Shown: one piece after another, positions 3,486 to 35,912 of the stretch
How positions within the stretch are numbered: position 1 is the stretch's first letter
Layout: every line of letters starts with the position of its first letter
Origin: Planctomycetota bacterium
GTDB taxonomy: Bacteria; Planctomycetota; UBA1135; UBA2386
Direction of reading: 5' to 3'
DNA: 64,000 bases
NCBI GenBank assembly: GCA_016794425.1
Contig: JAEUHR010000025.1
Location: 155,041-219,040, forward strand
The notes under the pieces: generated by a model
The model's input: only the letters and a program-made list of their open reading frames with translations
Database searches by the model: none
What the model was told of the DNA's origin: nothing
Position numbers and translations under genes: made by a program

Positions 3486-3603
3486 GCCCCGGGGCAGGCG
3501 GGTCGCGCGTTTTCGGCGCGAAATCCGGTCACCGCCGGCCCCGGGGGCGGCGGTGTCGCCGCGAACGGTGACACCGTCGTGCCGACCGCCTAGGCTCGGC
3601 CGC

Positions 3604-5290: not shown

Positions 5291-5339
5291 GGCCGCGATT
5301 GGAGCGCGGCGCGGCTTTGCTTTCCGCTGTGCCCGTCGC

Positions 5340-5500: not shown

Positions 5501-5563
5501 GGAATCGGCGCCGACGAGGCGCCGCGGCTCCTTCCGAACCGGCGCGAACGACGCCGGAGGATC

Positions 5564-14517: not shown

Positions 14518-14534
14518 ATGAGAGGGTCGGTCGC
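14518..14534. repeat. Left subterminal inverted repeat of the IS (atgagagggtcggtcgc)
   Basis: It is the perfect reverse complement of 15932-15948. Confidence 0.85.
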
Positions 14535-14589
14535 TCCGACGCAGTCGCCCACAATGGGTGCTGCACGAAAAATGGAGCAAGACCGACCC

Positions 14590-15660
14590 ATGACTCAGCC
14601 TACTCGTTCGACGTCCCCCGTGACCATCGGCCTCGACACCGGCGACCGCACAATCCACTACTGCGCCCTGGAAGCACGCGAGGTTTGCGGGCGCGGCGTT
14701 TGCCCGACGACCCGCGAAGGGCTGGACGAGGCGCTCGCGAAGTGGCCTGGCGCGCGTGTGGTGCTGGAAGCGGGCTCGCAGTCGGCTTGGATTGCTCGAC
14801 ACCTGAGGTCGCGGGGCTTCGACGTCCACGTAGTCGACCCGCGGCGGGTGCAGCTGATCTCGAAGGATCCGCGCAAGACAGACCGGCGCGACGCCGAGTT
14901 GCTGGCCCGCCTCGAGAGCGGAATGCCGGAGCTACTCGGGAGGGTGCACCACCGAGGCGAGCAGGCTCAGGCAGACCTGGCCATGATCCGTGCCCGCGAC
15001 CAGTTGGTGCGGGTGCGGAATTCGTTGGTGCAATGCGTCCGTGGACTGACGAAGTCCTTCGGGCTGCGCCTCCCATCTGCGACGACGTCGGCCTTCGGCA
15101 AGCGTGTCCGCGAGTTAGTGCCAGCAGCACTGCTGCCCGCAGTTGAGGTCGTGCTGGCACAGGTCGATGCGTTGACGGCATCGATCCGTGAACTCGACCG
15201 CCGCGTCGCACGAGTGGCCAAGGAGCGCTACCCAGAGGTCGCCAGGCTGCAACAGGTGCACGGCGTCGGTCCGGTCACCGCAGCCGCCTTCGTGCTGACG
15301 ATCGAAGAGCCGACGCGCTTCGACGACAGTCGCCGCGTTGGATCGTGGATCGGCCTGTGCCCGCGCGTCCACGCATCCGGCGACAGCAACCCCGAACTCG
15401 GGATCAGCAAATCGGGCGACGGCTACTTGCGCCGCTTGCTGGTGCAGTGCGCCCAGTACATCCTGGGGCACTTCGGCAAGGACAGCGAACTACGCCGCTT
15501 CGGATTGAAGCTGGCCGCCCGAGGCGGCCGCGCCGCGAAGAAGAAGGCCGTGACCGCGGTGGCCAGGAAACTGGCCGTGCTACTGCATCGCATCTGGCGA
15601 CGCGGTCTGACCTACGACCCCTTCCACAACACCAACCGGCAGGCGGCCCTGGCCGTCTGA
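14590..15660 (+). CDS. IS110-family transposase/recombinase (DEDD N-domain plus Transposase_20 C-domain)
   Basis: VTIGLDTGDRTIHYC, VVLEAGSQSAW, KTDRRDAELLARL, then LQQVHGVGPVTAAAFVLTIEEPTRFDDSRRVGSWIGLCPRVHASGD...ISKSGDGYLRRLLVQCA. The start is ATG 14590; an alternative is ATG 14572. Confidence 0.93.
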   Translation: MTQPTRSTSPVTIGLDTGDRTIHYCALEAREVCGRGVCPTTREGLDEALAKWPGARVVLEAGSQSAWIARHLRSRGFDVHVVDPRRVQLISKDPRKTDRRDAELLARLESGMPELLGRVHHRGEQAQADLAMIRARDQLVRVRNSLVQCVRGLTKSFGLRLPSATTSAFGKRVRELVPAALLPAVEVVLAQVDALTASIRELDRRVARVAKERYPEVARLQQVHGVGPVTAAAFVLTIEEPTRFDDSRRVGSWIGLCPRVHASGDSNPELGISKSGDGYLRRLLVQCAQYILGHFGKDSELRRFGLKLAARGGRAAKKKAVTAVARKLAVLLHRIWRRGLTYDPFHNTNRQAALAV

Positions 15661-17950: not shown

Positions 17951-20077
17951 TCAGCCGCCGTTCGCGTTGCGTTCCGGGGTGCCGCCGCCGCCCGGGCCCT
18001 GTCCACCGCCGCTGCCGCCGCCGTTGTTGCGGCGCGGCATCAGCGAACGCAGCCCGTCGCGCAGCGTCTGCGCGTCTTCGAGGCGCTTCTCGTCGATCGC
18101 CTTGACGATGTCGGCGACTGCGCGTTCGAGCTTGTCGACCTGCTCGGCGTCGAGCCGCGCGCGCATCATGTCCGGCATGCCGGCGAGCTGGTCGCGGCTC
18201 TGCTGCAGTTCTTCCGGCGTCATCTCGGTGAACTTCTTGCGCGGCCCGCCGCCGGGGCCGCGGTTGGCGGTGCCGGGGCCACGGTTGCCGCCGCCGTTCT
18301 GTGCGCCCGGCGTCGCCGGTTCGGCAGGCGGCGCAGCCGCGGTGGGTGCCGGTACGATTTCCGGCAGCGCCGGCTGCTCGAACTGCGGCGGCTGCGCCCC
18401 GACCGGCACCGCGAGGTGGATCACGTCGCCGACCGCGAGGCCGCGCAGCACTTCGACCATCTCGCTGTTGTGGCGACCGACCTCGACGCGCGTGGCGACC
18501 GGGCCCTGGTCGGTCTGCTTCCAGACGTAGTTGACGTTGCGGTCGCGGTAGATGCCCTGCAGCGGCACCGGCAGCGTGTCGGCGATCTTCTCGATGTTGA
18601 TCGTCACCGATGCGGCCATGCGCGAACGCAGCTTCGCGTCCGAGTTCTCGCCGTCGAGGTCGACGACCGTCGTGTAGACCTTGCGGTCGCTCGACATCCA
18701 GCCGCTGTTGCTGTCGGCAGTCGGGGCCACCGACGTCACGCGGCCCTGGTAGACCTCGCCGGGCCGCGCCTCGGCCTGCACGTAGGCGATCTGGCCCGGG
18801 CGCACCATCGACACCTGCGCCTCCTGCACCTTGATGATGCAGCGCATGCGCGTGGTGTCGGGCAGCACGATCAGCTCCTGCCGCTCGCGCACCTGCACGC
18901 CCTCCCGCACGGCCTCGCCGCCGCGGCGATCGCGGTCGATGCGCGCGTAGACGACCAGGCCCGGCGTCGGCGCGTGCACGACCGCGCTGCGGATCTGTCG
19001 CTCGAGGTTGTCGAGCCGCTCCTTCGCCAGCGTGAACTCGGCCTGGCGGCTGGTGAGTTCGCTGTCGGCCTTGGTGACCTCCGCGTCGTTGCTGGCCAGC
19101 ACGCGTTCGAGTTCGAGCGTCGCGTTCTCGCTCTCCTGCTGCAGTTCGATGCGCTGCTTCTCCAGCTCGTAGTTGATCAGCAGATCGAGCTCGTTCCAGG
19201 CCAGCGTCACCTGCGACACCTGGCTCTGCCACTCGAGCTGGTCGCGCTCGAGCTCGTTGCGCGTGATGAACTGCTTGGCGGCCAGGCGCCGCGAGTGGCC
19301 GAGGGTGTCTTCCTTGACCTTCAGTTCGGCCATCGCGAGCCGGATCGCGTCGACCTGGCGCAGCACCTTGTTGGCCATGTCGCCCATGTCGCGGTCGAGC
19401 CCGCCGTTCGGCCGGTCCTTCTCGCTCAGCAGCTCCCGCACCTTGCCGGTCAGGCCGCGGTAGTTGCGCGGATCGACCTGGCTGACCAGCGCTTCGGCGA
19501 CCGGCTCGCCCGCGGTCGGCTCGGGCGGCGCGCTCGGCGGCGTGGTGACGAGCTCCTCGAGCTTCTTCAGCATGTCGGCGTTCTTGCCCTCGCCGCCGCC
19601 GCCACGGCGGCCGCGGAACTTGTCGACCTCCATCTCGGCGATGCGCAGGCCGCTGCGCGCCGTGTTCTCCCTGGTCGTCAGTTCCTTCTGCAGGATCTCC
19701 TTCTCCTTCTGGGCCTGTGCCAGCGCTGCTTCCGCCTTCGCGACCGCGATCGCCTGGTTGGCGCGCTTCTCGACCAGCTCGCTGACGTCGAGTTCGACCA
19801 GCTTCTCGCCCTGCTGCACGTTGGTGCCCTCGGGGATCAGGAAGATGACCGTCGACTGACCCTCGACCTCGGAGCGCACCACGGTCTCGCGCACGGCCTG
19901 CAGCTCGGCGTTCTCCTTGACGGTGATCGGCAGGTCCGCGCGCTCGACGCGGAACAGCCGCGCGTTGGCCCCGGGTTCGTTCGCTTCGCCGCTGCAGGCG
20001 CCGAACAGCAGCGGCAGGGCGCCGACGGCGAGCAGGCGGAGGCGGATTCGGCGTGGATACGGCATGGCGAGGGTCAT
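17951..20077 (-). CDS. HlyD/MacA-family periplasmic adaptor, unusually long (708 aa), with a Gly-rich and helical C-terminal extension
   Basis: The ATG at 20077 overlaps the TolC-like stop (ATGA). Lipoprotein-like N-terminus LLAVGALPLLFGACSG. Biotinyl-like hairpin GEKLVELD, very long coiled coils, and beta-barrel and MP domains (VHAPTPGLVVY..., GQIAYVQAEARPGEVYQGRVTSVAP). The extra tail is ...NGGGNRGPGTANRGPGGGPRKKFTEMTPEELQQ...GGGSGGGQGPGGGG. Confidence 0.85.
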   Translation of the reverse strand: MTLAMPYPRRIRLRLLAVGALPLLFGACSGEANEPGANARLFRVERADLPITVKENAELQAVRETVVRSEVEGQSTVIFLIPEGTNVQQGEKLVELDVSELVEKRANQAIAVAKAEAALAQAQKEKEILQKELTTRENTARSGLRIAEMEVDKFRGRRGGGGEGKNADMLKKLEELVTTPPSAPPEPTAGEPVAEALVSQVDPRNYRGLTGKVRELLSEKDRPNGGLDRDMGDMANKVLRQVDAIRLAMAELKVKEDTLGHSRRLAAKQFITRNELERDQLEWQSQVSQVTLAWNELDLLINYELEKQRIELQQESENATLELERVLASNDAEVTKADSELTSRQAEFTLAKERLDNLERQIRSAVVHAPTPGLVVYARIDRDRRGGEAVREGVQVRERQELIVLPDTTRMRCIIKVQEAQVSMVRPGQIAYVQAEARPGEVYQGRVTSVAPTADSNSGWMSSDRKVYTTVVDLDGENSDAKLRSRMAASVTINIEKIADTLPVPLQGIYRDRNVNYVWKQTDQGPVATRVEVGRHNSEMVEVLRGLAVGDVIHLAVPVGAQPPQFEQPALPEIVPAPTAAAPPAEPATPGAQNGGGNRGPGTANRGPGGGPRKKFTEMTPEELQQSRDQLAGMPDMMRARLDAEQVDKLERAVADIVKAIDEKRLEDAQTLRDGLRSLMPRRNNGGGSGGGQGPGGGGTPERNANGG

Positions 20078-21693
20078 TCGGCGGTCCTGGCGGGTGACGG
20101 CGGCAGCGGCAGAGCGGGGTCGAAGCGCAGACCCTGGATGTCGAGCGCGATCGCCTCGAGGTCGCTCATCAGCTGCAGGCGCGCGATCGCGTAGTCGACG
20201 GTGGCGGCGGTCAGGTCGAGCTGCGCTTGCAGCAGCGCGTCCTGGGCGTCGAGCTTCTCGAGCGCCTGCACGCGGCCGGCGGCGTAGAGGTCGGTCGTCG
20301 CCTCGACACGTTGCGCGGCCAGATCGACGGCCACCGACTGGATGCGGTAGCTGTCGAGCGCTGCCTGGATGTTGCGCAGCGAGCTGCGCACGTCGGCGGC
20401 GATCTGGTCCTCGCTCTGCTCGCGGCTGCGCACCGCGAGGTCGAAGTCGATCAGCGCGCTGCGGTAGGCGTTGCGCTCGACCAGCCGGTCGAGCGCGAGG
20501 TCGAGCTCGAAACCGGCCGACCAGTTCACGCGCGACCAGTCGAGGTTCAGGCCGCTGCCCGACTCGGCCGGCGCGTTCAGGGCCGCGGTGAAGTCGAGCG
20601 CCATGCCCAGCGCGTCTTCGGCGACCAGGATGCGGCGGCCGGCGTCCTCGACCTCGTCGACGGTCGTACGGTGGTCGAAGCGGCGCTGCAGCGCCAGTTC
20701 GACCGCCGTGGCCTCGGTCAGGTCGACGGCTTCGACGCCGCGCGCCGTGACCTGGTCGAGTTCGGCCGGGTCGAGCGACACCTCGGCGGTGACCGGCAGA
20801 CCCAGAGTCAGCTTGAAGCGGTCCAACGAGGTCTGCAGCCGGTTCTTGGCGGCGACACGCTGCGCATCGGCCGCGTATTCGCTCTGCTGCGCGCGGCCGA
20901 GGTCGGTGACCGTGCGCCGGCCGGCGCGGTAGAGCTCCTCGATCTGCTCGCGCGACTGCACGAGGCTCTGGTAGTTGGCTTCGACGTTGCGCAGATCGGC
21001 GATCTGCGCGACGACGTTCCAATAGTCGCCGACGACCCGCACCGCGAACTCGGCCCGGAAGCGCTCGAAGGCGCGCATCGCGTAGACCACGTCGCGTTCG
21101 GCCTGCGTCAGCGGCTCGCGGACGATGCGGCGGCCGGCGCCGCGCAGCAGCGGCTGCGTCAGCGTCAGCCCCAGGATCGAGCTGCCGTCGAACGTGCCGC
21201 CGTGCACGACCGAGCGCAGGAACGTGTTGACGAAGTTGACGACGACGCGCGTGCCGGCCGTGCTGGTCACGGCCGCCGACAGGTCGTCGCCGAGCGTCAC
21301 GTCGGCGGTCTGGTCGGCGGTGCCGTCGATCGCGGCCGAACCGCCGCCGCCGAAGCGTAGCGCGAACTCGTGGCGGCTGCGCGTCAGGCTCAGCGCCGAC
21401 AGGTACAGCTGTTCCTTCTGCCGCTGGAAGTCGCGGCTGTTCTCGGCGGCGACGTCGAGTGCCTGCGCCAGCGTCAGCTGCACCGGCGTCGGCGCCGCCA
21501 GCAGCCGCGTGCGCAGCGTGTCGACCGGCCGTTCGACGGCGACCCGTTTGGCGGCGCCGGCCACCTTCGCGGCGGTCTGCTCGAGGATGCCGTAGACCTG
21601 TTCGTCGGCGCCCGTGCGGCTGTTCTCGGCGGTCCAGCAGGCGGCGCTGCACAAGGCGACGAGGGGGAGGGCGAGGCGGAGTCGGGCGGGCAC
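20074..21693 (-). CDS. TolC-family outer-membrane efflux protein
   Basis: GTG start at 21693. Signal MPARLRLALPLVALCSAACW. It has two OEP-type repeats with helical heptads (LTLAQALDVAAENSRDFQ..., ...YRIQSVAVDLAAQRVEATTDLYAAGRV). Confidence 0.85.
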   Translation of the reverse strand: MPARLRLALPLVALCSAACWTAENSRTGADEQVYGILEQTAAKVAGAAKRVAVERPVDTLRTRLLAAPTPVQLTLAQALDVAAENSRDFQRQKEQLYLSALSLTRSRHEFALRFGGGGSAAIDGTADQTADVTLGDDLSAAVTSTAGTRVVVNFVNTFLRSVVHGGTFDGSSILGLTLTQPLLRGAGRRIVREPLTQAERDVVYAMRAFERFRAEFAVRVVGDYWNVVAQIADLRNVEANYQSLVQSREQIEELYRAGRRTVTDLGRAQQSEYAADAQRVAAKNRLQTSLDRFKLTLGLPVTAEVSLDPAELDQVTARGVEAVDLTEATAVELALQRRFDHRTTVDEVEDAGRRILVAEDALGMALDFTAALNAPAESGSGLNLDWSRVNWSAGFELDLALDRLVERNAYRSALIDFDLAVRSREQSEDQIAADVRSSLRNIQAALDSYRIQSVAVDLAAQRVEATTDLYAAGRVQALEKLDAQDALLQAQLDLTAATVDYAIARLQLMSDLEAIALDIQGLRFDPALPLPPSPARTAE

Positions 21694-21851: not shown

Positions 21852-22502
21852 ATGGTCTCGATCTTGATCACCGCCGGGCCAACGCGCGAACACCTCGACG
21901 ACGTGCGGTTCCTGAGCAACGGCAGCTCGGGCCGCATGGGGTGCGCCCTCGCCCGCGCCGCGCTGGCACAGGGGCATGCGGTCACGCTGGTGCTCGGTCC
22001 GGTCGAGATCGAACCGCCGGCCGGCGTGGTGCTGCGGCGGGTCGTGTCGGCGCTCGAGATGCAGGCGGCGGCGGCGGCCGCGTTCGGCGCCGCGGACGTG
22101 GTCGTCGGCGCGGCCGCGGTCGCCGACTGGCGCCCGGCGCACCGCTTCGACGGCAAGCCGGCGCGCGGCGCCGCCGCGGTCACCCTCGAACTGGTGCCGA
22201 ACCCCGACATCCTGGCCGGGCTCGCGGCCGGCAAGGGCCGCCGCGTCGTGTTCGGCTTCGGCCTCGAATCGGCGGCGGCCGGCATGTCGGCCGCGATTGC
22301 GCGCGGCCGGGCCAAGCTCGAACGGAAGCAGCTCGACGGCATCGTCGTCGACCTGACGACGGCGATCGGCCGCGACGCGGCCGAGTTCGTGTTGTGCCGG
22401 CCGGGGGTGCCCGACGAGCCGTTGCCGAACGACAAAGCAGCCGCGGCAGCGCGCATCGTCGCCGCCGCGGTCGACGTGTGGCGAACGAGGCAGGCATCGT
22501 GA
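21852..22502 (+). CDS. coaB: Phosphopantothenate-cysteine ligase domain protein (CoaB only, no CoaC half)
   Basis: ILITAGPTREHLDDVRFLSNGSSGRMG...AAAVADWRP is the DFP/CoaB signature. Start is ATG 21852. Confidence 0.8.
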   Translation: MVSILITAGPTREHLDDVRFLSNGSSGRMGCALARAALAQGHAVTLVLGPVEIEPPAGVVLRRVVSALEMQAAAAAAFGAADVVVGAAAVADWRPAHRFDGKPARGAAAVTLELVPNPDILAGLAAGKGRRVVFGFGLESAAAGMSAAIARGRAKLERKQLDGIVVDLTTAIGRDAAEFVLCRPGVPDEPLPNDKAAAAARIVAAAVDVWRTRQAS

Positions 22503-25339
22503 GCAAGGCAGCAGCGAAGGTCGACCCGGCGGGGGTTCCGCCGCCGAAGAAGCGGGGCACCCGGTTCGTGCCGCTCGAGGACGCGCCGGTGCCCGGCATG
22601 TCGCAGCGCACGCGCGAAGTGGTGGCGCTGGCCGTGTGCGGCTTCGCGCTCTACGCGCTACTGAGCCTGGCGACGTTCCGGCTGGCGCCGCTCGACGGCG
22701 CGATCCCCGGCGACGGGCTGCAGAACCTTGGCGGCAGCGTCGGCTACTACCTGGCGTTCGGCTGCACGCGCGCGCTCGGGCTCGCCGGCTGGATGCCGTT
22801 CCTGCTGCTGCTGCTCGGCGCGCTGATGCTGTTCCTCGGCCGCAGCGTCGAGCGCCTGACCATCAAGGCGCTCGGCACGGTCGTGTTCGCCGCGACCTCG
22901 GCGATCCTGTTCGCCGGCGGCGACGGCCTCGCCGGCGTGCGCGAGATGACGCCGTACGGGGCCGGCGGCGTGTTCGGCGCGTTCGTGTCGCCGCGGCTCG
23001 AGTCGGCGTTCGGCGGCACCGGCCGCCTGCTGCTGGTCTGGTTCGGCGCGCTGGTGTCGCTGCTGCTGGCGACCGAGTGGATGTTCTCGGAACTGCTGCT
23101 GCGCGTCGTCGGCGCGCTCGAGGGCGGCTGGCGGCGACTGTTCGGCGGCGTCGCCCCGGCGGTCGCCGGCGGCGCTGCGGTCGCGGAGCTGGTCGAGGAT
23201 CGCGACCCGGCGCCGCGGCGGCGGCGGCGCAAGCCGGCCGATGCGGCGGACTCGGCCGACGCTGCCGATCCGGCCGGCGCCGAAGACGACGAACCCGAAG
23301 CGTCGGCGGCGGACGGCGACGCAGCCGAGGCCGGCGCCGAGCCGGCCGATGCCGACGCGGACGCCGCCGCGGCGCCGGCGTCGCGGCGCGGCCGCGGTGC
23401 CAAGGCCCGCGCGGCGCGCGATGCCGCGCCGGGTGACGCGGCGGACGATGCCGACGGCGCCGACCAGGTCGACGGCGACACGGGCACCGAGGCAGCCGAC
23501 GAGGCCGGCGAAGCCACCGCGGCCAAGGCCGATCCGGCCCCCGAGCCCGCGGCCGCCCCGGTGCCGCCGAGCCCGCCGCCGGCCGAGCCGGCCCCGGCGC
23601 CGCGGCCGGTCGTCATCGTGCGGCCGAAGCCGAAGCCGAAACCGAAGAAGCGCAGCGGCCAGAGCACGCTGCCGTTCGACGACGCCTACCCGTTCCCGCC
23701 GATCGAGCTGTTCCAGGAGGCCACCGTCACCGACGTCGGCGAGGCGTCCGAGGTGCTGACCCGCGGCGGCGATGCGATCGTGCAGAAGCTCGCGAACTTC
23801 GGCATCCAGTCGGAGATCGTCGCGGCGTCGGTCGGCCCGGCGGTCACGCAGTACGAGCTGCGGCTCGCCGAGGGCATCCGCGTCAGCAAGGTCGTGACGT
23901 TCGAATCCGATCTCGCGGCGGCGCTGAGGGCGATGTCGGTGCGCGTCGTCGCGCCGATTCCCGGCAAGGACACGATCGGCATCGAGGTGCCGAACGCGGA
24001 GCGGCAGAAGGTCTTCATGCGCGACCTGCTCGAGCAGTTCGGTCGCTCGGAGGGGCTGGCGATCCCGCTCTACCTCGGCAAGGACGTGGCCGGCAATCCG
24101 ATCGTCGAGGACCTGTCGCGCATGCCGCACCTGCTGATCGCCGGCACCACCGGCTCCGGCAAGTCGGTCTGCATCAACACGATCCTGTTGTCGGTGCTGA
24201 TGACCCGCACGCCGCGGCAGGTCAAGCTGATCCTGGTCGACCCGAAGATGGTGGAGCTGCAGGCCTACAAGCGCGTGCCGCACCTCTGCTGCGACGTGGT
24301 CACCAACATGAAGAAGGCGCCGGGCGTGCTGCAGTGGGCCGTCGACGAGATGGAGAACCGCTACGCGCTGCTGTCGGCCGCCGGCGTCAACCACATCCGC
24401 AACTACAACCGGCTCGGCCAGCAGGAGCTCGCCAAGCGGCTGCAGAAGGAGCCCGATCCCGATCGCGTGCACCTGCCGTACATCGTGATCGTGATCGACG
24501 AGTTCGCCGACCTGATGAACGTCGCGCAGAACGAGGTCGAGGAGCTGATCCAGCGCCTGGCGCAGAAGTCGCGCGCGGTCGGCATGCACGTGATCCTCGC
24601 CACGCAGCGGCCCAGCAGCGAAGTCATCACCGGCATCATCAAGGCCAACCTGCCCTGCCAGATCGCGTTCAAGGTGAACCGCCGCATCGACTCGCGCGTG
24701 ATCCTCGACGCCAACGGCGCCGAGAAGCTGCTCGGCTTCGGCGACATGCTCTACATGCCGCCGAGCGGCGGTGCGCTGCTGCGCGCGCAGGGCACGTTCG
24801 TCGCGGACGACGAGATGCAGGCCGTCGTGCGCTACCTCGAGGAGCACGGCCAGGAACCCGAGTTCAACCCGGCGCTGGTGCAGCGCCAGACCGGCTCGCG
24901 GCCGTCGATCGCCGACCGCGACGAACGCTACCGCGAGGCGGTCGAGATCGTGCTCGGCCAGCAGCGTGGTTCGGCGACGCTGCTGCAGCGCGCGCTGGCC
25001 GTCGGCTACACGCGCGCGACGCGGCTGCTCGAACTGATGGAGGAGGATGGCCTGGTGGGCCCGTTCGTCGGCTCGAAGTCGCGCGACGTGCTGCTGACGC
25101 TCGACGAGTGGCGCGCCCGCGAGGAGCAGATGGCCGAGGAGCTCGCCGCGATCGATGCCGCCGACGGCGACGGTGCCTACGAAGCGGATGGCGACGACGC
25201 GGCTGCGGACGGCGCCGAGGCCGACGACGGCGAGTCCGGCGCCGAGCACGAAGCCGAGTCGGCCGCAGCGCCGCCGCCGAGCGCGCCGGCGGCCGATCCG
25301 GCGGCCGAGGGGCGCAGCGACAGCGCGGCGCCGTTCTGA
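22499..25339 (+). CDS. ftsK: DNA translocase FtsK (4-TM domain, long acidic linker, motor, gamma domain)
   Basis: The GTG at 22499 overlaps the coaB stop (GTGA). N-terminal TM helices. Linker rich in A/D/P/E. Motor with Walker A GTTGSGKSVCINTILLS and Walker B IVIVIDEFADLM, plus ILATQRPS. Gamma domain GSATLLQRALAVGYTRATRLLELMEEDGLVG. Confidence 0.93.
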   Translation: MSKAAAKVDPAGVPPPKKRGTRFVPLEDAPVPGMSQRTREVVALAVCGFALYALLSLATFRLAPLDGAIPGDGLQNLGGSVGYYLAFGCTRALGLAGWMPFLLLLLGALMLFLGRSVERLTIKALGTVVFAATSAILFAGGDGLAGVREMTPYGAGGVFGAFVSPRLESAFGGTGRLLLVWFGALVSLLLATEWMFSELLLRVVGALEGGWRRLFGGVAPAVAGGAAVAELVEDRDPAPRRRRRKPADAADSADAADPAGAEDDEPEASAADGDAAEAGAEPADADADAAAAPASRRGRGAKARAARDAAPGDAADDADGADQVDGDTGTEAADEAGEATAAKADPAPEPAAAPVPPSPPPAEPAPAPRPVVIVRPKPKPKPKKRSGQSTLPFDDAYPFPPIELFQEATVTDVGEASEVLTRGGDAIVQKLANFGIQSEIVAASVGPAVTQYELRLAEGIRVSKVVTFESDLAAALRAMSVRVVAPIPGKDTIGIEVPNAERQKVFMRDLLEQFGRSEGLAIPLYLGKDVAGNPIVEDLSRMPHLLIAGTTGSGKSVCINTILLSVLMTRTPRQVKLILVDPKMVELQAYKRVPHLCCDVVTNMKKAPGVLQWAVDEMENRYALLSAAGVNHIRNYNRLGQQELAKRLQKEPDPDRVHLPYIVIVIDEFADLMNVAQNEVEELIQRLAQKSRAVGMHVILATQRPSSEVITGIIKANLPCQIAFKVNRRIDSRVILDANGAEKLLGFGDMLYMPPSGGALLRAQGTFVADDEMQAVVRYLEEHGQEPEFNPALVQRQTGSRPSIADRDERYREAVEIVLGQQRGSATLLQRALAVGYTRATRLLELMEEDGLVGPFVGSKSRDVLLTLDEWRAREEQMAEELAAIDAADGDGAYEADGDDAAADGAEADDGESGAEHEAESAAAPPPSAPAADPAAEGRSDSAAPF

Positions 25340-25467
25340 TCGGCGCGCACGAACTTGGTCGCGCCGAGCCACCATTGCTTGTGGCCGCCCGCGCGCGCGA
25401 GTAGATTCCGCAGCGTCGTCCGGTGGCGCCGGACGGTCCGATCCCACGCCCGGGAGGGGCGCAGACC

Positions 25468-27078
25468 GTGAGAAGCCTAGACATCTCCCTAGCGGAGCGT
25501 TCGTCGCGTACGGCGGCCGAATGGCTGTGGCCCCTGCTGCCGATCGGGGTCTCGGTCTTCAGTCTGTCGGCGCTGATCTACTACCACGTCAAGCTCGAGG
25601 TCGTGGAGGTGCGCTCGGCGCTGCAAGTGGTCATCGCCGGCATCTACCAGGCGGTCGGCCTGGCGCCGGCCGTGATGTTCTTCCTGCTGACGTTGACCTG
25701 GAGTTCGATCTGGTTCGTCACCGGCAAGCTCGATCGGCCGGTGCTGCGCATCGGTCGCCTGCTGGCGATGACCGTGATGCTCGGCGTGTTCCTGAACCTC
25801 GGCGACGGTGGGGTCGCGGCTGCGTCGCACAAGGGCGAACTCGGCGCCTGGCTCGCCGGGTGCCTGGTCGCCGCGTTCGGCTACCTGCCGAGTCTCGTGC
25901 TGGTCTGGGCCGTGACGTTCGCATCGCTGCTGCTGGCGACGGACTTCTTCTTCAGCGACAGCTTCGAACGGCTGCGCCATCGGCCGTCGGCCGAGAGCGG
26001 CGTCGAACCGGCCGTGACCGAACATCTGCGCGGCCTCGGCGCGCTGTCCCAGGCCGCGCCGACAGCGCCGATGGCGCCGCCGGTCGAGCTCGGTCCGCTC
26101 GAAGAACTGGCGCCGCTGCCGCCGCTGGTGGTCGAGCCGCAGGTGGCTGCGGCCGCTGCCACCGCGCCGACCGCGGCTGCCGAGGCCGACGAAGCCGACG
26201 AAGCGGCCTACGAGCCGCGCCGCCGCCGTTCCTACTTCGAGCGCCGCCGCGACGAGGAGGCTGCGCCGGAGCCGATGCCGGCCGCGGACCTGGATCGGCC
26301 CAGCGACGACGATCTGGGCGTCGCGCGGACCGCCGAATGGGGGCCGGTCGACGTCGCGACGGAAGTGGCGGCGCTGTCGCTGCCCGCGACGCCGGGGTTC
26401 GACCGCGCCGACACCGAGGAAGGAATCGCCGCCGAGGAGCTCGAGCGTGCGATCGCAGCCGACCGCACCGCCGAGTTGCCCGAGCCGACGTTCGTGCCGC
26501 TCGACGTGGACACCGAGCCTCTGCCAGCCGACCGCTGGCGCGACACCGGTGCGTCGGCCGCCGTGCCGTCGTTCGGCGACAACCCCGCGGCCGCGGCGAT
26601 GGGTGCCCCCGAAGCCGACGACCTCGACGACACCGACGACCTCGACGAACGCGACGGGACCCAACCGACGGAGCTCGCCGCCGCCGAACCTGCCGAAGCC
26701 GCCGAAGCCGCCGAAGACGACGACGCTGAAGACGACGACGCGGACGCAGCCGACGCGCCGGTCGACGACGAGGTGGCAGCAGAGGACACCGACGAGCCGG
26801 CGGCGCCGGAGGCCGTGGTGGCGATCCCGCGGCCCGATCCGGCGGTGCGCGAGCGCGCGCCGGCGCGCCAGCAGCAGCTGTTCGCCAACGAGGTCGACGA
26901 CGACCTGGTGCAGGAAGCGATGGACGTGCTGGACGGCCAGAGCCGCGCCACGGCGTCGCTGCTGCAGCGCCGGCTGCGCATCGACTACGACCAGGCCGTG
27001 GCGCTGATGGCACAGCTCGGCGCGCGTGGGCTGGTCGAACTCGAGGCCGATGCGACGCAGGGTCGCGTGATCGTCTGA
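25468..27078 (+). CDS. FtsK paralog without a motor: FtsK-like 4-TM domain, acidic linker, FtsK-gamma winged helix
   Basis: GTG 25468 is preceded by GGGAGGGG (25452-59); ATG 25423 is also possible. The N-terminal membrane part parallels FtsK: compare GELGAWLAGCLVAAFGYLPSLVLVWAVTFASLLLATDFFF with GGVFGAFVSPRLESAFGGTGRLLLVWFGALVSLLLATEWMF. The C-terminus SRATASLLQRRLRIDYDQAVALMAQLGARGLVE is gamma-like. There is no Walker A/B anywhere. Confidence 0.75.
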   Translation: MRSLDISLAERSSRTAAEWLWPLLPIGVSVFSLSALIYYHVKLEVVEVRSALQVVIAGIYQAVGLAPAVMFFLLTLTWSSIWFVTGKLDRPVLRIGRLLAMTVMLGVFLNLGDGGVAAASHKGELGAWLAGCLVAAFGYLPSLVLVWAVTFASLLLATDFFFSDSFERLRHRPSAESGVEPAVTEHLRGLGALSQAAPTAPMAPPVELGPLEELAPLPPLVVEPQVAAAAATAPTAAAEADEADEAAYEPRRRRSYFERRRDEEAAPEPMPAADLDRPSDDDLGVARTAEWGPVDVATEVAALSLPATPGFDRADTEEGIAAEELERAIAADRTAELPEPTFVPLDVDTEPLPADRWRDTGASAAVPSFGDNPAAAAMGAPEADDLDDTDDLDERDGTQPTELAAAEPAEAAEAAEDDDAEDDDADAADAPVDDEVAAEDTDEPAAPEAVVAIPRPDPAVRERAPARQQQLFANEVDDDLVQEAMDVLDGQSRATASLLQRRLRIDYDQAVALMAQLGARGLVELEADATQGRVIV

Positions 27079-27214: not shown

Positions 27215-28564
27215 ATGGTCGACTTCAAGCAATCGTTCGAGGGGCGGGGCGTGCCGCAGAGCCTCGAGGCCGAGCGGTCCGTGCTCGGCGCGCTGCTGCT
27301 GCACCCCGATGCGGTCGCCGACGTGACGTTCCTGCGCGCCGACGACTTCTACCTGCCGCGCCACCAGCTGATCTTCGAGTCGATCCTGACCGCGTTCAAC
27401 GATCGCCACGCGACCGACCCGATCGTCGTCGGCGAACAGCTGTCCCGCAGCGGGCGGCTGCAGGAGGTCGGTGGCCACGAGCAGCTGCTCGACCTGATGG
27501 AGAGCGTGGTCACCGCGGCCGGCATCGTGCACCACGCCGAGATCGTGCGCGAGAAGGCGATCCAGCGCCGCCTGCTCGAGACCTGCCTCGACGTCGCGCG
27601 CCGCGCCTACGACAACGAACTCGAGGCCAAGGAGCTGCTCGACGAAGCGGAGCGGCAGATCTTCGAGATCTCGCGGCTCGACAAGTCCGGCGAGGCGGTC
27701 AGCATCGCCAGCGTGCTGCAGCAGACCTTCGAGCGCATCGACCGGCTGCGCGAGCGCGAGGGGCGCCTGACCGGCCTCGGCACCGACTACTACGACCTCG
27801 ACGACATGACCGGCGGTCTGCAGCCGGGCGAGCTGATCATCGTCGCGGCGCGTCCGTCGATGGGCAAGACGAGCTTCGCGCTGAACCTGACCGAACGCGT
27901 CGCCAGCCACAACGCCGCGGTGGCGTTCTTCTCGCTCGAAATGTCGAACCAGCAGGTCATCCAGAACATGCTCTGCTGCCGCGCCCAGATCGACGGCCAG
28001 GCGATGCGCAAGGGCCGCGTCACCGACCAGCAGTACAAGCGCCTGCAGGACGAGGCGGCGCGGCTCTACGAGACGCCGATCTACGTCGACGACACGCCGG
28101 GTATCACGATCACGCAGCTGCGCGCGAAGTGCCGGCGCCTGAAGCAGAAGCACGGCATCCAGATGGTCGTGGTCGACTACCTGCAGCTGATGTCGGCCGG
28201 CGGCCGCGTCGAGAGCCGCCAGCAGGAGATCTCGACGATCTCGCGCGGCCTCAAGGGCATCGCCCGCGAGCTGTCGGTGCCGGTGATCGCACTGTCGCAG
28301 TTGAATCGCGACGTCGAGAACCGCGATGATCACCGCCCGCGGATGAGCGACCTGCGCGAGTCGGGTGCCATCGAGCAGGACGCCGACGTCATCGTGCTGC
28401 TGCACCGCGACGAGTACTACAAGCCGACCGAACAGAACGCGGGCCTGGCCCAGATCATCATCGCCAAACAACGCAACGGCCCGACCGGCGAGGTGGTCCT
28501 GCGTTTCTTCCGCGAGTACATGCGATTTGAGAACTTCACGCGCAGGGCCGAGCCGATGCAGTGA
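27215..28564 (+). CDS. dnaB: Replicative DNA helicase DnaB
   Basis: PQSLEAERSVLGALLL, Walker A AARPSMGKTSFALN, FSLEMS, VVVDYLQLM, ALSQLNR and IIIAKQRNGPTG match the family over the full length. Confidence 0.95.
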   Translation: MVDFKQSFEGRGVPQSLEAERSVLGALLLHPDAVADVTFLRADDFYLPRHQLIFESILTAFNDRHATDPIVVGEQLSRSGRLQEVGGHEQLLDLMESVVTAAGIVHHAEIVREKAIQRRLLETCLDVARRAYDNELEAKELLDEAERQIFEISRLDKSGEAVSIASVLQQTFERIDRLREREGRLTGLGTDYYDLDDMTGGLQPGELIIVAARPSMGKTSFALNLTERVASHNAAVAFFSLEMSNQQVIQNMLCCRAQIDGQAMRKGRVTDQQYKRLQDEAARLYETPIYVDDTPGITITQLRAKCRRLKQKHGIQMVVVDYLQLMSAGGRVESRQQEISTISRGLKGIARELSVPVIALSQLNRDVENRDDHRPRMSDLRESGAIEQDADVIVLLHRDEYYKPTEQNAGLAQIIIAKQRNGPTGEVVLRFFREYMRFENFTRRAEPMQ

Positions 28565-31804: not shown

Positions 31805-32403
31805 GCGCCGCGCGGGCGTTCCGCGTCACGGTCTACGCATCGTCGAGCGACCGCATCGACCCCGCGTTCGTCGCGATCGCCGAAGACCTCGGCCGCCGCA
31901 TCGCCGAACGTGGCTGGGACCTGGTCTGGGGCGGCGGGCGGCACGGCCTGATGGGCGCGGTGTCGCGCGGCGCGCGCGCTGCCGGCGGCCGCACGATCGG
32001 CGTGATCCTGCAGGCGTTCGTCGACAAGAACGTGCACTGCACCGACGCACACGAGATGGCGTCGGTCACCGACATGCGGCTGCGCAAGCGCGGGCTCGAC
32101 GAGTCCGGCGACGCGTTCGTCGCCTTGCCGGGCGGCCTCGGCACGATGGAGGAACTGCTGGAGGTGCTGTCGTTCCGGCAGCTCGGCCTGCACCGGAAGC
32201 CGATCGTCGTGCTCGACGCGCTCGGCTACTGGCAGCCGCTGCTGGCGATGCTCGAACACGGCTTCCGGCACGGGTTCATCCAGCCGCACTTCCGCGGCCT
32301 GTGGTCGGTCGCGCGCGACCCGGCGCAGGCGATCGAGCAGATCGCCGCACCAGTGCGCGCGGCGGCCGCACCGCACGACCCGCGCGGCGGCGGCACCGCG
32401 TGA
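31801..32403 (+). CDS. LOG-family protein (TIGR00730; nucleotide 5'-monophosphate nucleosidase-like)
   Basis: The GTG at 31801 overlaps the Nudix stop. VTVYASSS...VWGGGRHGLMGAVSRGA...FVALPGGLGTMEELLEVLS has the PGGxGTxEE signature. Confidence 0.85.
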   Translation: MSAARAFRVTVYASSSDRIDPAFVAIAEDLGRRIAERGWDLVWGGGRHGLMGAVSRGARAAGGRTIGVILQAFVDKNVHCTDAHEMASVTDMRLRKRGLDESGDAFVALPGGLGTMEELLEVLSFRQLGLHRKPIVVLDALGYWQPLLAMLEHGFRHGFIQPHFRGLWSVARDPAQAIEQIAAPVRAAAAPHDPRGGGTA

Positions 32404-33166
32404 ACTTCGCTGCCGACCTCGAGCTCGCCGCGGCGGGATTGCGGGTCGCGGCCGCGATCCTGCGCGCGCACGCCGGCCGCGCCGGCGGCGTGCCCTACGA
32501 ACTGAAGGACGGCAGCAGCCCGGTGACCGCGGCGGACCGCGAAGTCGACGCGGCGCTGCGCGCGCTGCTGCCTCGCGGCGACGACGGCTGGTTGTCGGAG
32601 GAGAGCGACGACGATCCGCGGCGGCTCGGCTGTCGGCGCGTCTGGATCGTCGACCCGCTCGACGGCACGCGCTCGTTCGTCGCCGGGCGGCCGGAGTACG
32701 CGACGTGATCGCGTTGGTCGTCGACGGCGAACCGGTGCTCGGCGCGATCGGCAATCCGGCGACCGGGTTGTGCGTGTGCGGCGCGGTCGGCCACGGTGTG
32801 CAGGTCGACGGGGATCCGGGGCTCGGGTGGCAGCACGCCGGCGACCGGCTGCGGCTGCTGGTCAGCCGCAGTGAGTGGCAGCGCGGCGAGTGGCGGCACG
32901 CGGCGGCGGCCGGCTGTGAAGCGCTGCCGATGGGTTCGGTCGCCTACAAGCTGGCGCTGGTGGCCGCCGGCGGCGCCGACGCGACGTGGACGCGCCATCC
33001 GAAGCACGAGTGGGACGTCGCGGCCGGGGCCGCGCTGGTGCGGGCGGCCGGCGGCGAAGTCTGGCTGCCGCACGGCGGAGCGCTGCACTGGAACGCCGCG
33101 CGGCCACGGTTGCCGAGCTTCGCGGCGGCGCGCGCCGGCGTGCGACCGCGCCTCGCGGCGCTGTGA
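32400..33166 (+). pseudogene. cysQ: CysQ/inositol-monophosphatase-family gene split by a 1-nt frameshift at 32705-32708
   Basis: The N-half (32400..32708) has KDGSSPVTAADREVD and WIVDPLDGTRSFVAGRPEYAT-stop. The C-half (32705..33166) starts VIALVVDGEPVLGAIGNP and carries WDVAAGAALV. In intact family members the two halves are contiguous (...GEFTVNIALI...). The junction reads gcg-ac-GTGA-tc, which is one nt short of a continuous frame. It could also be two translationally coupled halves or a sequencing error. Confidence 0.7.
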
Positions 33167-33169
33167 GAC

Positions 33170-33577
33170 TCAGGCCTCGGCCATCGTGCGCTGGAAGATG
33201 TCGCTGGTACTCAACAGGCCGACCACGGCCGTGCCGTCGACGACCGGCATGCGGCGCACGCCGGCCATGCGCATCAGATTGATGCAGTCGAGCAGGTTCG
33301 TCGTCGCCGGCACGCAGATCGCCGGCCGCGTCATCACGTCGGCGACGCGCAGCTCCGACAGCACCGCGGGGTCCTGCGTGCCGAGCAGGTTGACGATGTC
33401 CTTGCTGGTGACGATGCCCGGCAGGTCGGTCGGGTCGGCGCCGGCGACCAGCAGTGCGCGGATGCCGTGCTGCACCATGCGGCGTGCGGCCGTCAGCAGG
33501 TTCTCGTGGGCGGTGGCCCACTGCGGCGCCTTGCTCATCACGTCCTTGGCGCGCAGACGATGCAGATCGACGGTCAT
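33170..33577 (-). CDS. CBS-domain pair protein
   Basis: 135 aa. It has two CBS repeats (AKDVMSKAPQWATAHENLLTAARRMVQHGIRALLV... and VADVMTRPAICVPATTNLLDCINLMRMAGVRRMPVVD). The ATG at 33577 overlaps the FapA-like stop (ATGA). Confidence 0.85.
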   Translation of the reverse strand: MTVDLHRLRAKDVMSKAPQWATAHENLLTAARRMVQHGIRALLVAGADPTDLPGIVTSKDIVNLLGTQDPAVLSELRVADVMTRPAICVPATTNLLDCINLMRMAGVRRMPVVDGTAVVGLLSTSDIFQRTMAEA

Positions 33578-34884
33578 GACAGGGACTCCTCTCGCATGCG
33601 GTCGTGCTCCGGATCCCACACGAAGCGGACCCGCGAGCGTGGTTCTTCGAGCTGGCGCGTGAACACGCCGAAGCGCAGCCGGACACCGGGCTGCGCGGTG
33701 CCGGCGATCTCGATGCTGGCGGCTTGCAGCAGCTCGCGCTGCAGCTGCGCCAGCCGCAGCTTCTCCTCGCGCGTCGCATCGGCCGTGCGCACGGCAGAGC
33801 GCAGCGCCTTCGCGCCGGCACGGCCGTGGTCGCGCCGGCTGCGCACGGCCTGGCGTTCGAGCCGTGCGCCCGAGGCGGCGCGGCGCGCGGCGTCGGTCTG
33901 TTCGGCGGTCAGGTCGGCGACCGCCAGCAGCGTCACGGCGCCGTCGACGACGCCGGCGTGCAGCAGCCGGATCGCGCGGCGCGCGCGCAGCTCGCCGCCG
34001 ACGACGGTACCGCGGCCGGTCCGCACGTGGACGTGTTCGCCGAGCACCGTGCAGCTGGTCGCGTGGTCGGTGATCTCGACCGTGCCCTCGGCGCACAGCC
34101 GCGCCGAGGTCGCGTGCCGGCAGTGGATCGAAGCGCCGGCGCGCACGATGCTGTCGCGGCCGACGATGCCCTGCGCCACACGCACCGAACCGCCGGCCGT
34201 GACCGTGCCGCCCTGCACGGTGCCGCCGACGACGATGTCGCCGGCCGCCGTCGCGGCGAGGCCCTCCCGCACGTCGCCGCGGATCTCCAGCGAACCCTCG
34301 GTGTGCAGATTGCCGCTGCGCAGGTCGACGTCGCCGGCGTGTGAATAGAGCGGCATCACGTCGAGCTGCCGCGCGTCGCGCAGCAGCACGCCGGCGCGCG
34401 CGGCGACGAGTCGATCGCCGTCCAGCGCCACGCCGGCACCGATGCGCACCGCGTGCGGCCGACCGGGCCGCGGCTCGAGCCGGCGCCCGCGCACGTCGAT
34501 GCCGACCGTGCCGGGCGTCGGCGCCACGACCACGCCGAGCGGCTGGCCCGCGGCGACCGGGTGCAGGCGTTGCCGTTCGTGCCAGTCGATGTGGCCGTCT
34601 TCGTGCTCGCGGCCGGGCCGGAAGCGCGTGTCGATCGCACAGTCGACGCGGCCGTCCTCGCCGGCAACGGCCGCGGTGCCGCGCGCCAGCACGGCGGTGC
34701 CGTCGTAGCCGGGATCGGCGAGCCGCTGCGCGAACGCTTCGACGGCGTCGTTGTCGATGCCGGCCTGCACGCCCGCGCGCTGCAGTTCGTCGCGCAGCTC
34801 CCGTACCGAGACGGCGAAGCCGGCGGCGGCGATCGCCTCGGCCGACGAACCGTCGCCGGCGATCTGGATGCGGATGCGGGTCAC
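33574..34884 (-). CDS. FapA-family protein (DUF342, flagellar-assembly-protein-A-like)
   Basis: GTG start at 34884. N-terminal regulatory-like domain. Central beta-helix repeats (GDVDLRSGNLHTEGSLEIRGDVREGLAATAAGDIVVGGTVQGGTVTAGGSVRVAQGIVG...). C-terminal coiled coil and ...GVRLRFG tail, as in DUF342 proteins. Confidence 0.7.
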   Translation of the reverse strand: MTRIRIQIAGDGSSAEAIAAAGFAVSVRELRDELQRAGVQAGIDNDAVEAFAQRLADPGYDGTAVLARGTAAVAGEDGRVDCAIDTRFRPGREHEDGHIDWHERQRLHPVAAGQPLGVVVAPTPGTVGIDVRGRRLEPRPGRPHAVRIGAGVALDGDRLVAARAGVLLRDARQLDVMPLYSHAGDVDLRSGNLHTEGSLEIRGDVREGLAATAAGDIVVGGTVQGGTVTAGGSVRVAQGIVGRDSIVRAGASIHCRHATSARLCAEGTVEITDHATSCTVLGEHVHVRTGRGTVVGGELRARRAIRLLHAGVVDGAVTLLAVADLTAEQTDAARRAASGARLERQAVRSRRDHGRAGAKALRSAVRTADATREEKLRLAQLQRELLQAASIEIAGTAQPGVRLRFGVFTRQLEEPRSRVRFVWDPEHDRMREESLS

Positions 34885-35063
34885 GGTCGTTCCATCGACC
34901 GGGCCGGGGCCCGGGCTTCTGGGCCGTTGGCGGCGAGGGGCGTTCGCGGCGCGGACGGCGGCTGGTCGGCGGCCCGCCGGCCGGCTGCGCGGCAGGCGCC
35001 GATGCCATCGACGGCTCGGCGGCGGCTCAGCCGGGCGCGCCGGCGAGCCGATGAGACCGGGCG

Positions 35064-35912
35064 ATGACGACCGCGACCTCGGACCTCTCCCGGCAGTTCG
35101 CCGGCCTGATCGCGAAGGGCCAGCTCGACTTGCCGCCGATGCCGGCGACGGCCACCGAGGTGATGGACCTCTGCCAGCAGGAGACGACCGACGCGGCGAA
35201 GTTGTCAGCGGTCGTGCACCGCGACCAGACGATCGCGTCGAACGTGCTGCGCGTCGCGAACTCGGTCGCCTACGCCGGGCAGATGCCGTGCACGTCGCTG
35301 CAGCAGGCCGTGAGCCGGCTCGGCATGCAGCTGATCAGCGAGATCGCGACGGCGGTCGCGGTGCGCGGGCGCATGTTCACGAACCCTCGCTGCGCCGCGC
35401 TGCTGGCCTTGCTGTGGCGCCATTCGGTGCTGGCCGGCTTCTTCGCCAAGGAGGTCGCGCGTCTGCGTCGGCGCAACGTCGACGTGGCGTTCCTGTGCGG
35501 GTTGTTGCACGACGTCGGCAAGGCGGTGCTGCTCGACAACGTCGACCGCACGGCGGCCGGCCGCGGCGCCGGCCTGGACGAAGGCGAACTGATGGCGGCG
35601 CTGCACGAACAGCACACCGCGGCCGGTGTCGTGCTCGCGGCTTCGTGGAAGCTGCCGGAGCAGATCGCCGAGGCGATGCGCTGCCACCACGAGCCGACCG
35701 CGTCCGAGCGCTTCCAGGAGCTCGCCGAGACGGTCGCGTTCGCCGACGCGCTGGCGCACCTGACCGCCGCCAGCGCCTTCGCGGTGCCGCCGAGCGAAGC
35801 CGAGCTGCGCGCGCATCCGGCGCTGCGCGTCCTGAACCTCTATCCCGACCAGGTCGATGCGCTGCTGGCGATGCGCCCGCGGGCACTGCAGGTCGCCGAG
35901 GGCATGCGATGA
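35064..35912 (+). CDS. HDOD-domain signalling protein
   Basis: LPPMPATATEVMDLCQQETTDAAKLSAVVHRDQTIASNVLRVANSVAY....LQQAVSRLG ... FLCGLLHDVGKAVL is the classic HDOD layout. Confidence 0.85.
   Translation: MTTATSDLSRQFAGLIAKGQLDLPPMPATATEVMDLCQQETTDAAKLSAVVHRDQTIASNVLRVANSVAYAGQMPCTSLQQAVSRLGMQLISEIATAVAVRGRMFTNPRCAALLALLWRHSVLAGFFAKEVARLRRRNVDVAFLCGLLHDVGKAVLLDNVDRTAAGRGAGLDEGELMAALHEQHTAAGVVLAASWKLPEQIAEAMRCHHEPTASERFQELAETVAFADALAHLTAASAFAVPPSEAELRAHPALRVLNLYPDQVDALLAMRPRALQVAEGMR

Follow-up and report, generated by a model that had tools for sequence, protein, structure and literature searches.

FtsK joins three jobs in one polypeptide, namely divisome membership (N-domain), DNA pumping (alpha/beta), and sequence reading together with XerD activation (gamma). 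To our knowledge, these jobs have been separated in Escherichia coli solely by engineering, in the form of N-domain-only alleles, isolated gamma, and gamma fused to XerC or XerD. The present analysis concerns a 64,000-nucleotide stretch of a Planctomycetota genome (hereafter the window; G+C about 72%) and, within it, a gene at 25468-27078 (+ strand) encoding a motor-less FtsK paralogue, referred to here as X. The N-domain of E. coli FtsK is known to hexamerise at midcell (PMC3870252). Planctomycetota have been reported to divide without FtsZ, and in Planctopirus limnophila, which has neither ftsZ nor ftsA, ftsK was reported to be the sole essential gene of the dcw (division and cell wall) cluster (PMC12283558).

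X represents an uncharacterised, lineage-restricted family, confined to uncultured lineages, in which the residues lost and those retained form an informative pattern. It is very probably a functional motor-less FtsK paralogue whose gamma domain is not a reader of FtsK orienting polar sequences (KOPS).

Architecture of X

The domains and conserved linker segments of X, numbered in amino acids (aa) and, where available, with the corresponding segment of the AlphaFold2 (AF2) model and its predicted local distance difference test score (pLDDT), are as follows (TM, transmembrane helix).

25468-27078 (+): X coding sequence, 536 aa; GTG start at 25468, stop at 27076-27078
25516-25974 (+): FtsK-type 4-TM membrane domain, aa 17-169; from profile-profile match, AF2 model and conservation
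25999-26037 (+): juxtamembrane helix GVExAVT(D/E)HLRGL, aa 178-190, just past TM4; AF2 helix 179-194
26215-26250 (+): basic helix (P)RRRRSYFERRR, aa 250-261, within the acidic linker; AF2 helix 256-265, pLDDT about 80
26809-26841 (+): motif EPxVxIPRPxP, aa 448-458; pattern in 140/167 X members
26866-26886 (+): motif R-Q-Q-x-L-F-[GA], aa 467-473, some ten residues N-terminal to gamma helix 1
26896-27075 (+): gamma-derived winged helix, aa 477-536; from Pfam FtsK_gamma, AF2 and fold matches

The start at 25468 matches the N-termini of homologues (MRSLD... / MTVNTLG...), and a protein identical to X (P0001, 536 aa) is recorded as a hypothetical protein from a Planctomycetes metagenome-assembled genome (MAG). 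The first-pass annotation described a three-part protein, with a membrane domain clearly paralogous to that of FtsK, an acidic linker of roughly 250 aa, and a gamma-like winged helix, and this architecture was recovered by Pfam, hhalign and AF2 taken together.

The Pfam FtsK_4TM profile (PF13491) scores X at 11.2 bits (E 0.29), under its cut-off of 23.1; one homologue passes the cut-off (P0191, 30.4 bits), and two others carry a precomputed PF13491 match. Although the Pfam match is sub-threshold, the paralogy is upheld by profile-profile comparison: an X-family N-domain profile matched one built from 36 FtsK N-domains of the same loci at a probability of 97.8% (hhalign, E 8.8e-13), with 148 colinear columns covering all four helices. 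The reversed-template control gave E 0.16, indicating that hydrophobic composition is not the cause of this match. Full-length X and FtsK profiles are colinear at both ends (hhalign, E 7.4e-14), and BLASTP of X against the FtsK of the window detected 43% identity over 47 aa in the TM4 region (E 2e-6) and 39% over 46 aa in the gamma region (E 4e-6). The N-domain contains four hydrophobic segments, which form a helical bundle with a pLDDT above 90 in the AF2 model, built from a 116-sequence family alignment. In a fold search of this model against the PDB, the N-domain gave no match at E<=0.001, the top matches all being to the C-terminal winged helix. As in FtsK, the topology is probably N-in/C-in, judging from where Arg and Lys fall in the loops.

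A second hhalign match places X aa 66-174 (TM3-4; 25663-25989) on FtsK aa 10-92 (TM1-2; about 22625-22873) at a probability of 95.4% (E 1.7e-8), which points to a putative internal 2+2 helix duplication in the FtsK 4-TM domain.

At the C-terminus, Pfam FtsK_gamma (PF09397) matches aa 477-529 at 37.7 bits, compared with a gathering score of 30.6, and a sequence search of the PDB with X returned FtsK gamma entries only (2j5p, 2j5o, 2ve8, 5dcf, 2ius and 2iut). Residues 475-536 are modelled with a pLDDT above 93 in a helix-strand-helix-helix-strand-strand topology (H-b-H-H-b-b). The top PDB folds are 2j5p, 2ve8 and 2ve9, the gamma domains of E. coli and Pseudomonas aeruginosa, with target-normalised TM-scores of 0.73-0.81, a root-mean-square deviation of about 2 A, and 27-30% identity (Foldseek). 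The resemblance to gamma proposed earlier is thus supported in both sequence and fold.

The earlier statement that X contains no Walker A/B or alpha/beta motor sequence also stands. Apart from FtsK_gamma, the Pfam scan of X returned only sub-threshold MarR_2 and FtsK_4TM matches; no motor match (FtsK_SpoIIIE, PF01580) was found at E<=1 in Pfam and NCBIfam, the NCBIfam scan being empty, and the alpha domain (PF17854) gave no match in X. Ten divergent relatives of X likewise gave neither an alpha nor an FtsK_SpoIIIE match. Walker-A-like G....GK[ST] strings in two members (P0146 and P0212) lie in the N-terminal tail ahead of TM1 and were dismissed as chance occurrences.

The linker joining the two domains was correctly described as acidic (pI 4.05; 76 D+E versus 20 K+R) but is longer than first stated, at about 298 aa rather than 250. 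It is mostly disordered in the AF2 model, with the exception of three short helices, and is unalignable across the family except for the four short conserved blocks listed above, whose occurrence was counted over 167 X-family members. In the juxtamembrane helix, conservation is 90% or more at G178, V179, E180 and L187, and the string GVE occurs in 146/167 members. The basic helix conserves Y256, E258, R259 and R260, with the strict pattern present in 80/167. In the third block, I453, P454 and R455 are invariant across 116 X sequences. The fourth contains Q-x-x-[LM]-F at a constant distance N-terminal to the gamma-like domain in 146/167 members, compared with four occurrences in 71,277 residues (5.6e-5 per residue) elsewhere in the same proteins. 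In the X of the window, this is QQQLF at aa 468-472, a segment of low pLDDT that fits the clamp pentapeptide pattern by sequence only. In the beta-clamp-binding pentapeptide (QL[SD]LF or QxxLF), positions 1, 4 and 5 matter most (PMC12309361).

The FtsKs of the clade carry a segment PVVIxRPKPKPKPK followed by Q-x-x-L-P-F (27/36) before the alpha domain (in the window at about 23560-23690; loci L002-L050). The Q-x-x-L-P-F is similar to a clamp-binding motif of the hexapeptide type, and the segment as a whole recalls IPRP...RQQxLF in X. Homology of the two linker ends (EPxVxIPRP...RQQxLF in X and PVVIxRPKP...QxxLPF in FtsK) was considered and rejected: they appear colinear by eye, but hhalign gave E 0.14, and the reversed control was better (0.014). 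Because this similarity is not significant, a precise excision of the motor between the linker-end motifs is not claimed.

KOPS-reading and XerD-contact positions of the gamma-like domain

In E. coli FtsK, the triple mutants R1300A/E1303A/E1306A and N1296A/R1300A/E1303A lose KOPS recognition (PMC2680272, PMC2533119). An alignment of gamma regions, taken from 38 distinct FtsKs adjoining X genes and from 120 distinct X members, with those of E. coli and P. aeruginosa gave the following residues at E. coli positions.

Position 1296: T 37 in the 38 FtsKs; D 34, A 32, E 31, Q 10 in the 120 X members
Position 1297: R 38 in the FtsKs; L 54, Q 24, E 12, T 10 in X
Position 1300: R 38 in the FtsKs; D 40, E 36, A 14, R 11 in X
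Position 1303: E 38 in the FtsKs; A 72, G 11, V 11, R 8 in X
Position 1306: E 38 in the FtsKs; A 79, G 17, S 8, V 6 in X

The four KOPS-blind positions, N1296, R1300, E1303 and E1306, are replaced in most X members, often by acidic residues, and the exposed face of helix 3, with D1294 and E1304 included, is acidic or alanine-rich. In the X of the window, RIDYDQAVALMAQLG aligns to RIGYNRAARIIEQME of E. coli. By contrast, R1297, R1300, E1303 and E1306 are intact in 38/38 neighbouring FtsKs, that of the window included. Thus, where the first-pass annotation saw a winged helix resembling the KOPS-reading gamma domain, the reading positions turn out to be substituted in most X members and kept in the FtsKs beside them. 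The X family may be regarded as a natural equivalent of the KOPS-blind mutations, adjoining an FtsK with its reading residues intact.

A different face of the domain has been retained. In the crystal structure of XerD-gamma, the contacts are Q1288, R1289, R1292, I1293, G1294 and N1296, the salt bridge from R1289 to XerD E184 being the most important, and a 9-residue peptide (1289-1297) tethered to XerC suffices to stimulate recombination (PMC5052618). Four of these six contact residues are kept in the X family: among the 120 members, Q1288 is found in 114, R1289 in 120, R1292 in 119, and I or V at 1293 in 120. In addition, K or R occupies 1290 in 120/120, and Y1295 is present in 113/120. In the X of the window, this helix-2/turn face reads LLQR[KR]LRIDY in family notation (aa 498-507, nt 26959-26988). 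Since the clade FtsKs have Ala, Ser or Gly at 1292, R1292 is dispensable for the fold; the best-conserved surface of the X gamma domain is therefore the protein-partner surface of canonical gamma.

Several points weigh against a protein partner of this kind, and against XerD in particular. The contact positions G1294 (Asp in 111/120) and N1296 (Asp, Ala, Glu or Gln) are changed and, with an E. coli-like XerD, the X residues at 1294 and 1296 would put acid opposite XerD Glu119. The helix-2 residues could also have been kept for fold stability or DNA-backbone contact instead of XerD, and gamma has overlapping surfaces for XerD and DNA (PMC5052618). Given the two changed contact positions, the partner of X need not be XerD, and we regard XerD itself as a possible though doubtful candidate. 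No Xer recombinase was found in the 64-kb window (30 open reading frames (ORFs) scanned). On the other side, gamma on its own can activate XerCD-dif with no translocase present (PMC3130261), which makes activation by a protein lacking the motor possible in mechanistic terms.

Family, locus and origin

A first homology search returned 134 relatives of X of 400-700 aa, nearly all with a precomputed PF09397 match; the named ones all come from Planctomycetota MAGs. In an exhaustive profile search covering 1.84 billion cluster representatives (family threshold E<=1e-30), about 144 clusters at 50% identity shared the X architecture, with lengths of 400-754 aa, and among these no motor and no protein longer than 754 aa was found. 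A further, word-indexed search with divergent members as queries added few members to the family and separated it (E<=1e-43) from genuine FtsKs (E>=4.5e-16) by a clear gap, the FtsKs having matched X-family queries through gamma only. Even divergent members retain the 4TM+gamma architecture. The alignment of 116 sequences has 23 invariant columns, and conservation reaches at least 90% in about 46 others, mostly within the two domains; the invariant residues of the N-domain are W78, W82, G86, N110, G123, G126, LAT156-158, F162 and F166.

For the N-domain, pairwise ratios of nonsynonymous to synonymous substitution rates (dN/dS) between the X of the window and seven close relatives ranged from 0.20 to 0.43; the corresponding ranges were 0.19-0.80 (gamma-like domain) and 0.41-0.75 (linker). 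The N-domain values are as low as or lower than those of the whole neighbouring FtsK (0.32-0.58). Because dS is compressed (G+C at third codon positions about 90%), these ratios are, if anything, overestimates. The structured domains of X are under purifying selection. Short tandem repeats of codon period are found in the linkers of both X (26181-26741) and FtsK (23234-23647) of the window. Three MAGs (L018/L056, L022/L048 and L025/L047) have an assembly break within the X linker: the N-domain lies at the end of one contig, and another begins with the gamma domain. Together with the repeats, these breaks suggest that the linkers may be repeat-driven and length-variable.

On the + strand of the window, the gene order is coaB-like, ftsK, X, dnaB, and then a bamA-like gene ending at 31253. 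The neighbours of X are as follows.

21852-22502 (+): coaB-like gene (phosphopantothenate-cysteine ligase domain); Pfam DFP C-terminal domain, E 4e-51
22499-25339 (+): full-length ftsK; likely GTG start at 22499, alternative ATG at 22598
25340-25467 (+): ftsK-X spacer, 128 bp; Shine-Dalgarno-like GGGAGGGG at 25452-25459
27215-28564 (+): dnaB; Pfam DnaB and DnaB_C

The FtsK of the window exceeds all Pfam cut-offs, with 64 bits for FtsK_4TM, 99.5 for FtsK_alpha, 200 for FtsK_SpoIIIE, and 74 for FtsK_gamma. GGGAGGGG stands eight bases 5' of the X start codon, GTG 25468. A promoter and terminator scan found no promoter-like or terminator-like site in the ftsK-X spacer and nothing informative in the X-dnaB spacer, and Rfam and tRNA scans gave no match at the coaB-ftsK-X-dnaB locus. 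At 22499-22502, the sequence GTGA overlaps the GTG start of ftsK with the TGA stop of the coaB-like gene, which suggests possible translational coupling of these two genes.

With each GTDB species represented by one genome, a survey yielded 57 X loci, nearly all from lake, activated-sludge or soil MAGs bearing the title Planctomycetota. A locus labelled Acidimicrobiales (L044) and one labelled Luminiphilus (L054) carry planctomycete ftsK-X or X-dnaB-bamA genes with high identity to other loci, and are probably mis-binned contigs of the X clade. The pairing of ftsK with a motor-less gene, for which a survey had been suggested, proved to be conserved: of the 43 loci whose flank was long enough, 37 have a same-strand ftsK ending no more than 1.5 kb upstream of X, and three have it 2-5 kb upstream. 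The remaining three have no ftsK in the upstream flank, which tells against a strict pairing and indicates that the adjacency is not obligatory. Directly downstream of X, dnaB is found in 40/42 loci, and in most related loci ftsK is preceded by coaB. The loci range in FtsK-motor identity from 94% down to 60%, and in BamA identity down to 37%. The most divergent subclade examined (L058) retains coaB-ftsK-X despite different downstream genes, which marks the ftsK-X pair as the stable unit.

With respect to origin, the X N-domain profile scored 84.8 (E 7e-13) against the FtsK N-domains of its own clade, compared with 43.9 (E 4.9e-6) against a sample from other phyla, and in the most divergent X members gamma is more FtsK-like (GPYxGS wing, LMSxxEW tail). 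Both observations fit a within-lineage duplication; as judged from these sequence relationships, X most likely stems from an ftsK copy made in this planctomycete lineage that then lost its motor.

Other features of the window were also recorded. A cobalamin riboswitch is located at 5327-5516 (+) (Rfam RF00174, 72.6 bits, E 5.7e-16), and the ORF directly downstream of it (5564-6580), for which there is no Pfam match, may be an unannotated B12-related transporter or enzyme. A gene of the inositol-monophosphatase family appears to be divided between two ORFs, 32301-32708 and 32705-33166 (+), covering Pfam profile positions 14-107 and 108-251, respectively; the division could be genuine, or could stem from a frameshift or from misassembly. 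Transposase genes lie at 14518-15660 (+) and 2493-3947 (-), one of the IS110 family (DEDD_Tnp_IS110 and Transposase_20) and one YhgA-like (Transposase_31 and DUF4351). Upstream of coaB-ftsK-X, TolC-like OEP and HlyD-type membrane-fusion genes are divergently oriented at 17951-21693 (-), an arrangement also found in the divergent locus L058 (1-4536, -), where MacB/ABC genes are added. At 33574-35912, a FapA-family gene (-) adjoins an HDOD/HD-domain gene (+), forming a signalling or motility-related pair.

Proposed role and comparison with known systems

The loss of the KOPS residues together with retention of the helix-2/turn face leads us to propose that X is a membrane-anchored protein-interaction adaptor. 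X would be a functional FtsK derivative that has kept the 4-TM domain and the gamma winged helix and has dispensed with the alpha/beta DNA pump. Its 4-TM domain would put it in the inner membrane, with or within FtsK N-domain assemblies at the division site; its long, acidic, disordered cytoplasmic tether would expose short docking motifs that are conserved; and its gamma domain, turned to a new purpose, would bind a protein partner, neither translocating nor reading DNA. In this way, X could recruit or regulate late chromosome-processing partners, the leading candidates being XerCD or FtsK itself. Placement of X at the FtsK site and competition with FtsK are plausible given the homologous 4-TM domain, but membrane topology, localisation, co-assembly with FtsK and partner identity are all points that we infer. 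For the whole model, that of an adaptor sitting or co-assembling with FtsK, we estimate a probability of roughly one in two.

The surface retained for a partner might instead serve DNA. As a membrane-DNA tether or membrane-bound DNA-binding regulator, X would use its winged helix to bind DNA non-specifically or at a new motif, through R1281, R1289, K/R1290, R1292, R1308 and the wing Arg, and would attach part of the chromosome to the membrane or to the division site. Relatives of this winged-helix fold bind DNA, several family-specific basic residues are invariant in X, the XerD surface of canonical gamma overlaps the DNA surface (PMC5052618), and the gene lies between ftsK and dnaB. However, the exposed positions of the recognition helix are acidic or neutral (D1294, D/E1296, D/E1300, E1304; Ala at 1303 and 1306), the gamma-like domain as a whole is acidic (pI 4.27 in the window, family median 5.0), and even canonical gamma, when isolated, is a poor binder of KOPS DNA (PMC3384302); this role seems unlikely. 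The membrane domain could, on the other hand, be what matters: by inserting its 4-TM domain into FtsK N-domain hexamers, X would act as a regulator of FtsK assembly or a poison subunit, lowering the number of motor subunits or timing hexamer formation. The homology of the two N-domains, the midcell hexamers of E. coli FtsK (PMC3870252), and the tight adjacency of ftsK and X, with no terminator-like site between them, agree with such a role, which nevertheless leaves the conservation of the gamma-like domain and of four linker motifs unexplained; moreover, W78, W82 and N110, invariant in the X N-domain and not found in that of FtsK, may equally mean a separate homo-oligomer. We consider it about as improbable as the DNA tether.

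The linker motifs invite a further reading, in which RQQxLF binds the beta-sliding-clamp and X keeps clamps loaded on DNA, or factors bound to clamps, at the membrane or the site of division. The fixed position of Q-x-x-[LM]-F, its frequency relative to background, its placement in a disordered segment, and the conservation of positions 1, 4 and 5 as in clamp-binding motifs (PMC12309361) are in its favour, as are dnaB as the conserved downstream neighbour and the similar QxxLPF of 27/36 clade FtsKs. The match is nevertheless one to a 5-residue pattern, with Gln at position 2 where Leu is usual and a variable position 3, and the motif is missing from 21 members, so that we assign this tether a low probability, below that of either role just discussed. 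Equally speculative is a composite in which X is an FtsK-derived motor-less membrane hub coupling the end of replication to division in these planctomycetes: jointly, the 4-TM domain would sit in or beside the FtsK ring, RQQxLF would capture DNA-loaded beta-clamps or clamp-bound factors, and gamma would engage Xer recombinases or another partner, with the checkpoint and adaptor roles of FtsK split from pumping into a protein of their own. Finally, X might be a decaying remnant of a tandem ftsK duplication, without a function of its own, as the first-pass annotation had allowed. It does lie directly after ftsK, and its middle is of low complexity and fast-evolving, with codon-period repeats and the higher linker dN/dS of 0.41-0.75. 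Against this stand intact ORFs of similar length in about 144 clusters, with none seen frameshifted or truncated, many invariant residues in both domains, N-domain dN/dS values no higher than those of FtsK, and conserved residues and linker motifs peculiar to the X family. A pseudogene or decayed duplicate was accordingly ruled out on conservation, synteny, intact ORFs and dN/dS, and the remnant retains next to no probability.

The X family represents a natural "FtsK without alpha/beta", long maintained beside a complete FtsK. If X works with FtsK, it would offer a handle on the roles of the FtsK N-domain and gamma beyond translocation, and would be a candidate part of the poorly understood planctomycete machinery for division and segregation. 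The remark that no characterised example is known agrees with our searches, in which no 4TM+gamma motor-less FtsK paralogue was found in the literature covered, most subscription journals lying outside that coverage. A paper on the division genes of the PVC (Planctomycetes-Verrucomicrobia-Chlamydiae) superphylum discusses planctomycete FtsK, with no X-like paralogue (PMC12283558).

Compared with the FtsK translocases of E. coli, P. aeruginosa and the window itself, X has a homologous 4-TM domain, a long, variable, low-complexity linker and a homologous gamma, and FtsK and X share the conserved Q1288/R1289 helix-2 motif. Unlike FtsK, X is without alpha, the RecA-like beta motor and Walker motifs, is substituted at the KOPS-blind positions, and has linker motifs of its own. 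It is a member of the FtsK family by descent at both ends, while failing the defining features of a DNA translocase and of a KOPS-reading gamma. SftA of Bacillus subtilis is likewise a truncated second FtsK-family paralogue alongside a full-length membrane-bound translocase; its truncation is the opposite of that of X, with the motor kept and the membrane domain gone.

In the case of isolated gamma and the XerC-gamma and XerD-gamma fusions, a motor-less gamma acts on XerD (PMC3130261, PMC5052618), and X retains R1289, R1292, I1293 and Y1295 of the XerD-stimulating peptide. The fusions, however, are artificial and contain canonical gamma, whereas X is natural and membrane-anchored, with G1294D and a changed N1296. 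XafT of phage TLC-phi, a natural XerD activator independent of FtsK translocation, offers a possible functional analogy to X (PMC6744903, PMC9226527), although it is of an unrelated family, phage-encoded and soluble. The small terminase of the Bacillus phages Sam46 and Sam112 resembles X in that the gamma winged helix is reused without the FtsK motor (PMC8190038). In these phages, the DNA-binding residues of gamma are kept and the domain is fused to a terminase (PMC8190038), whereas in X those residues are lost and the domain is fused to the FtsK membrane domain.

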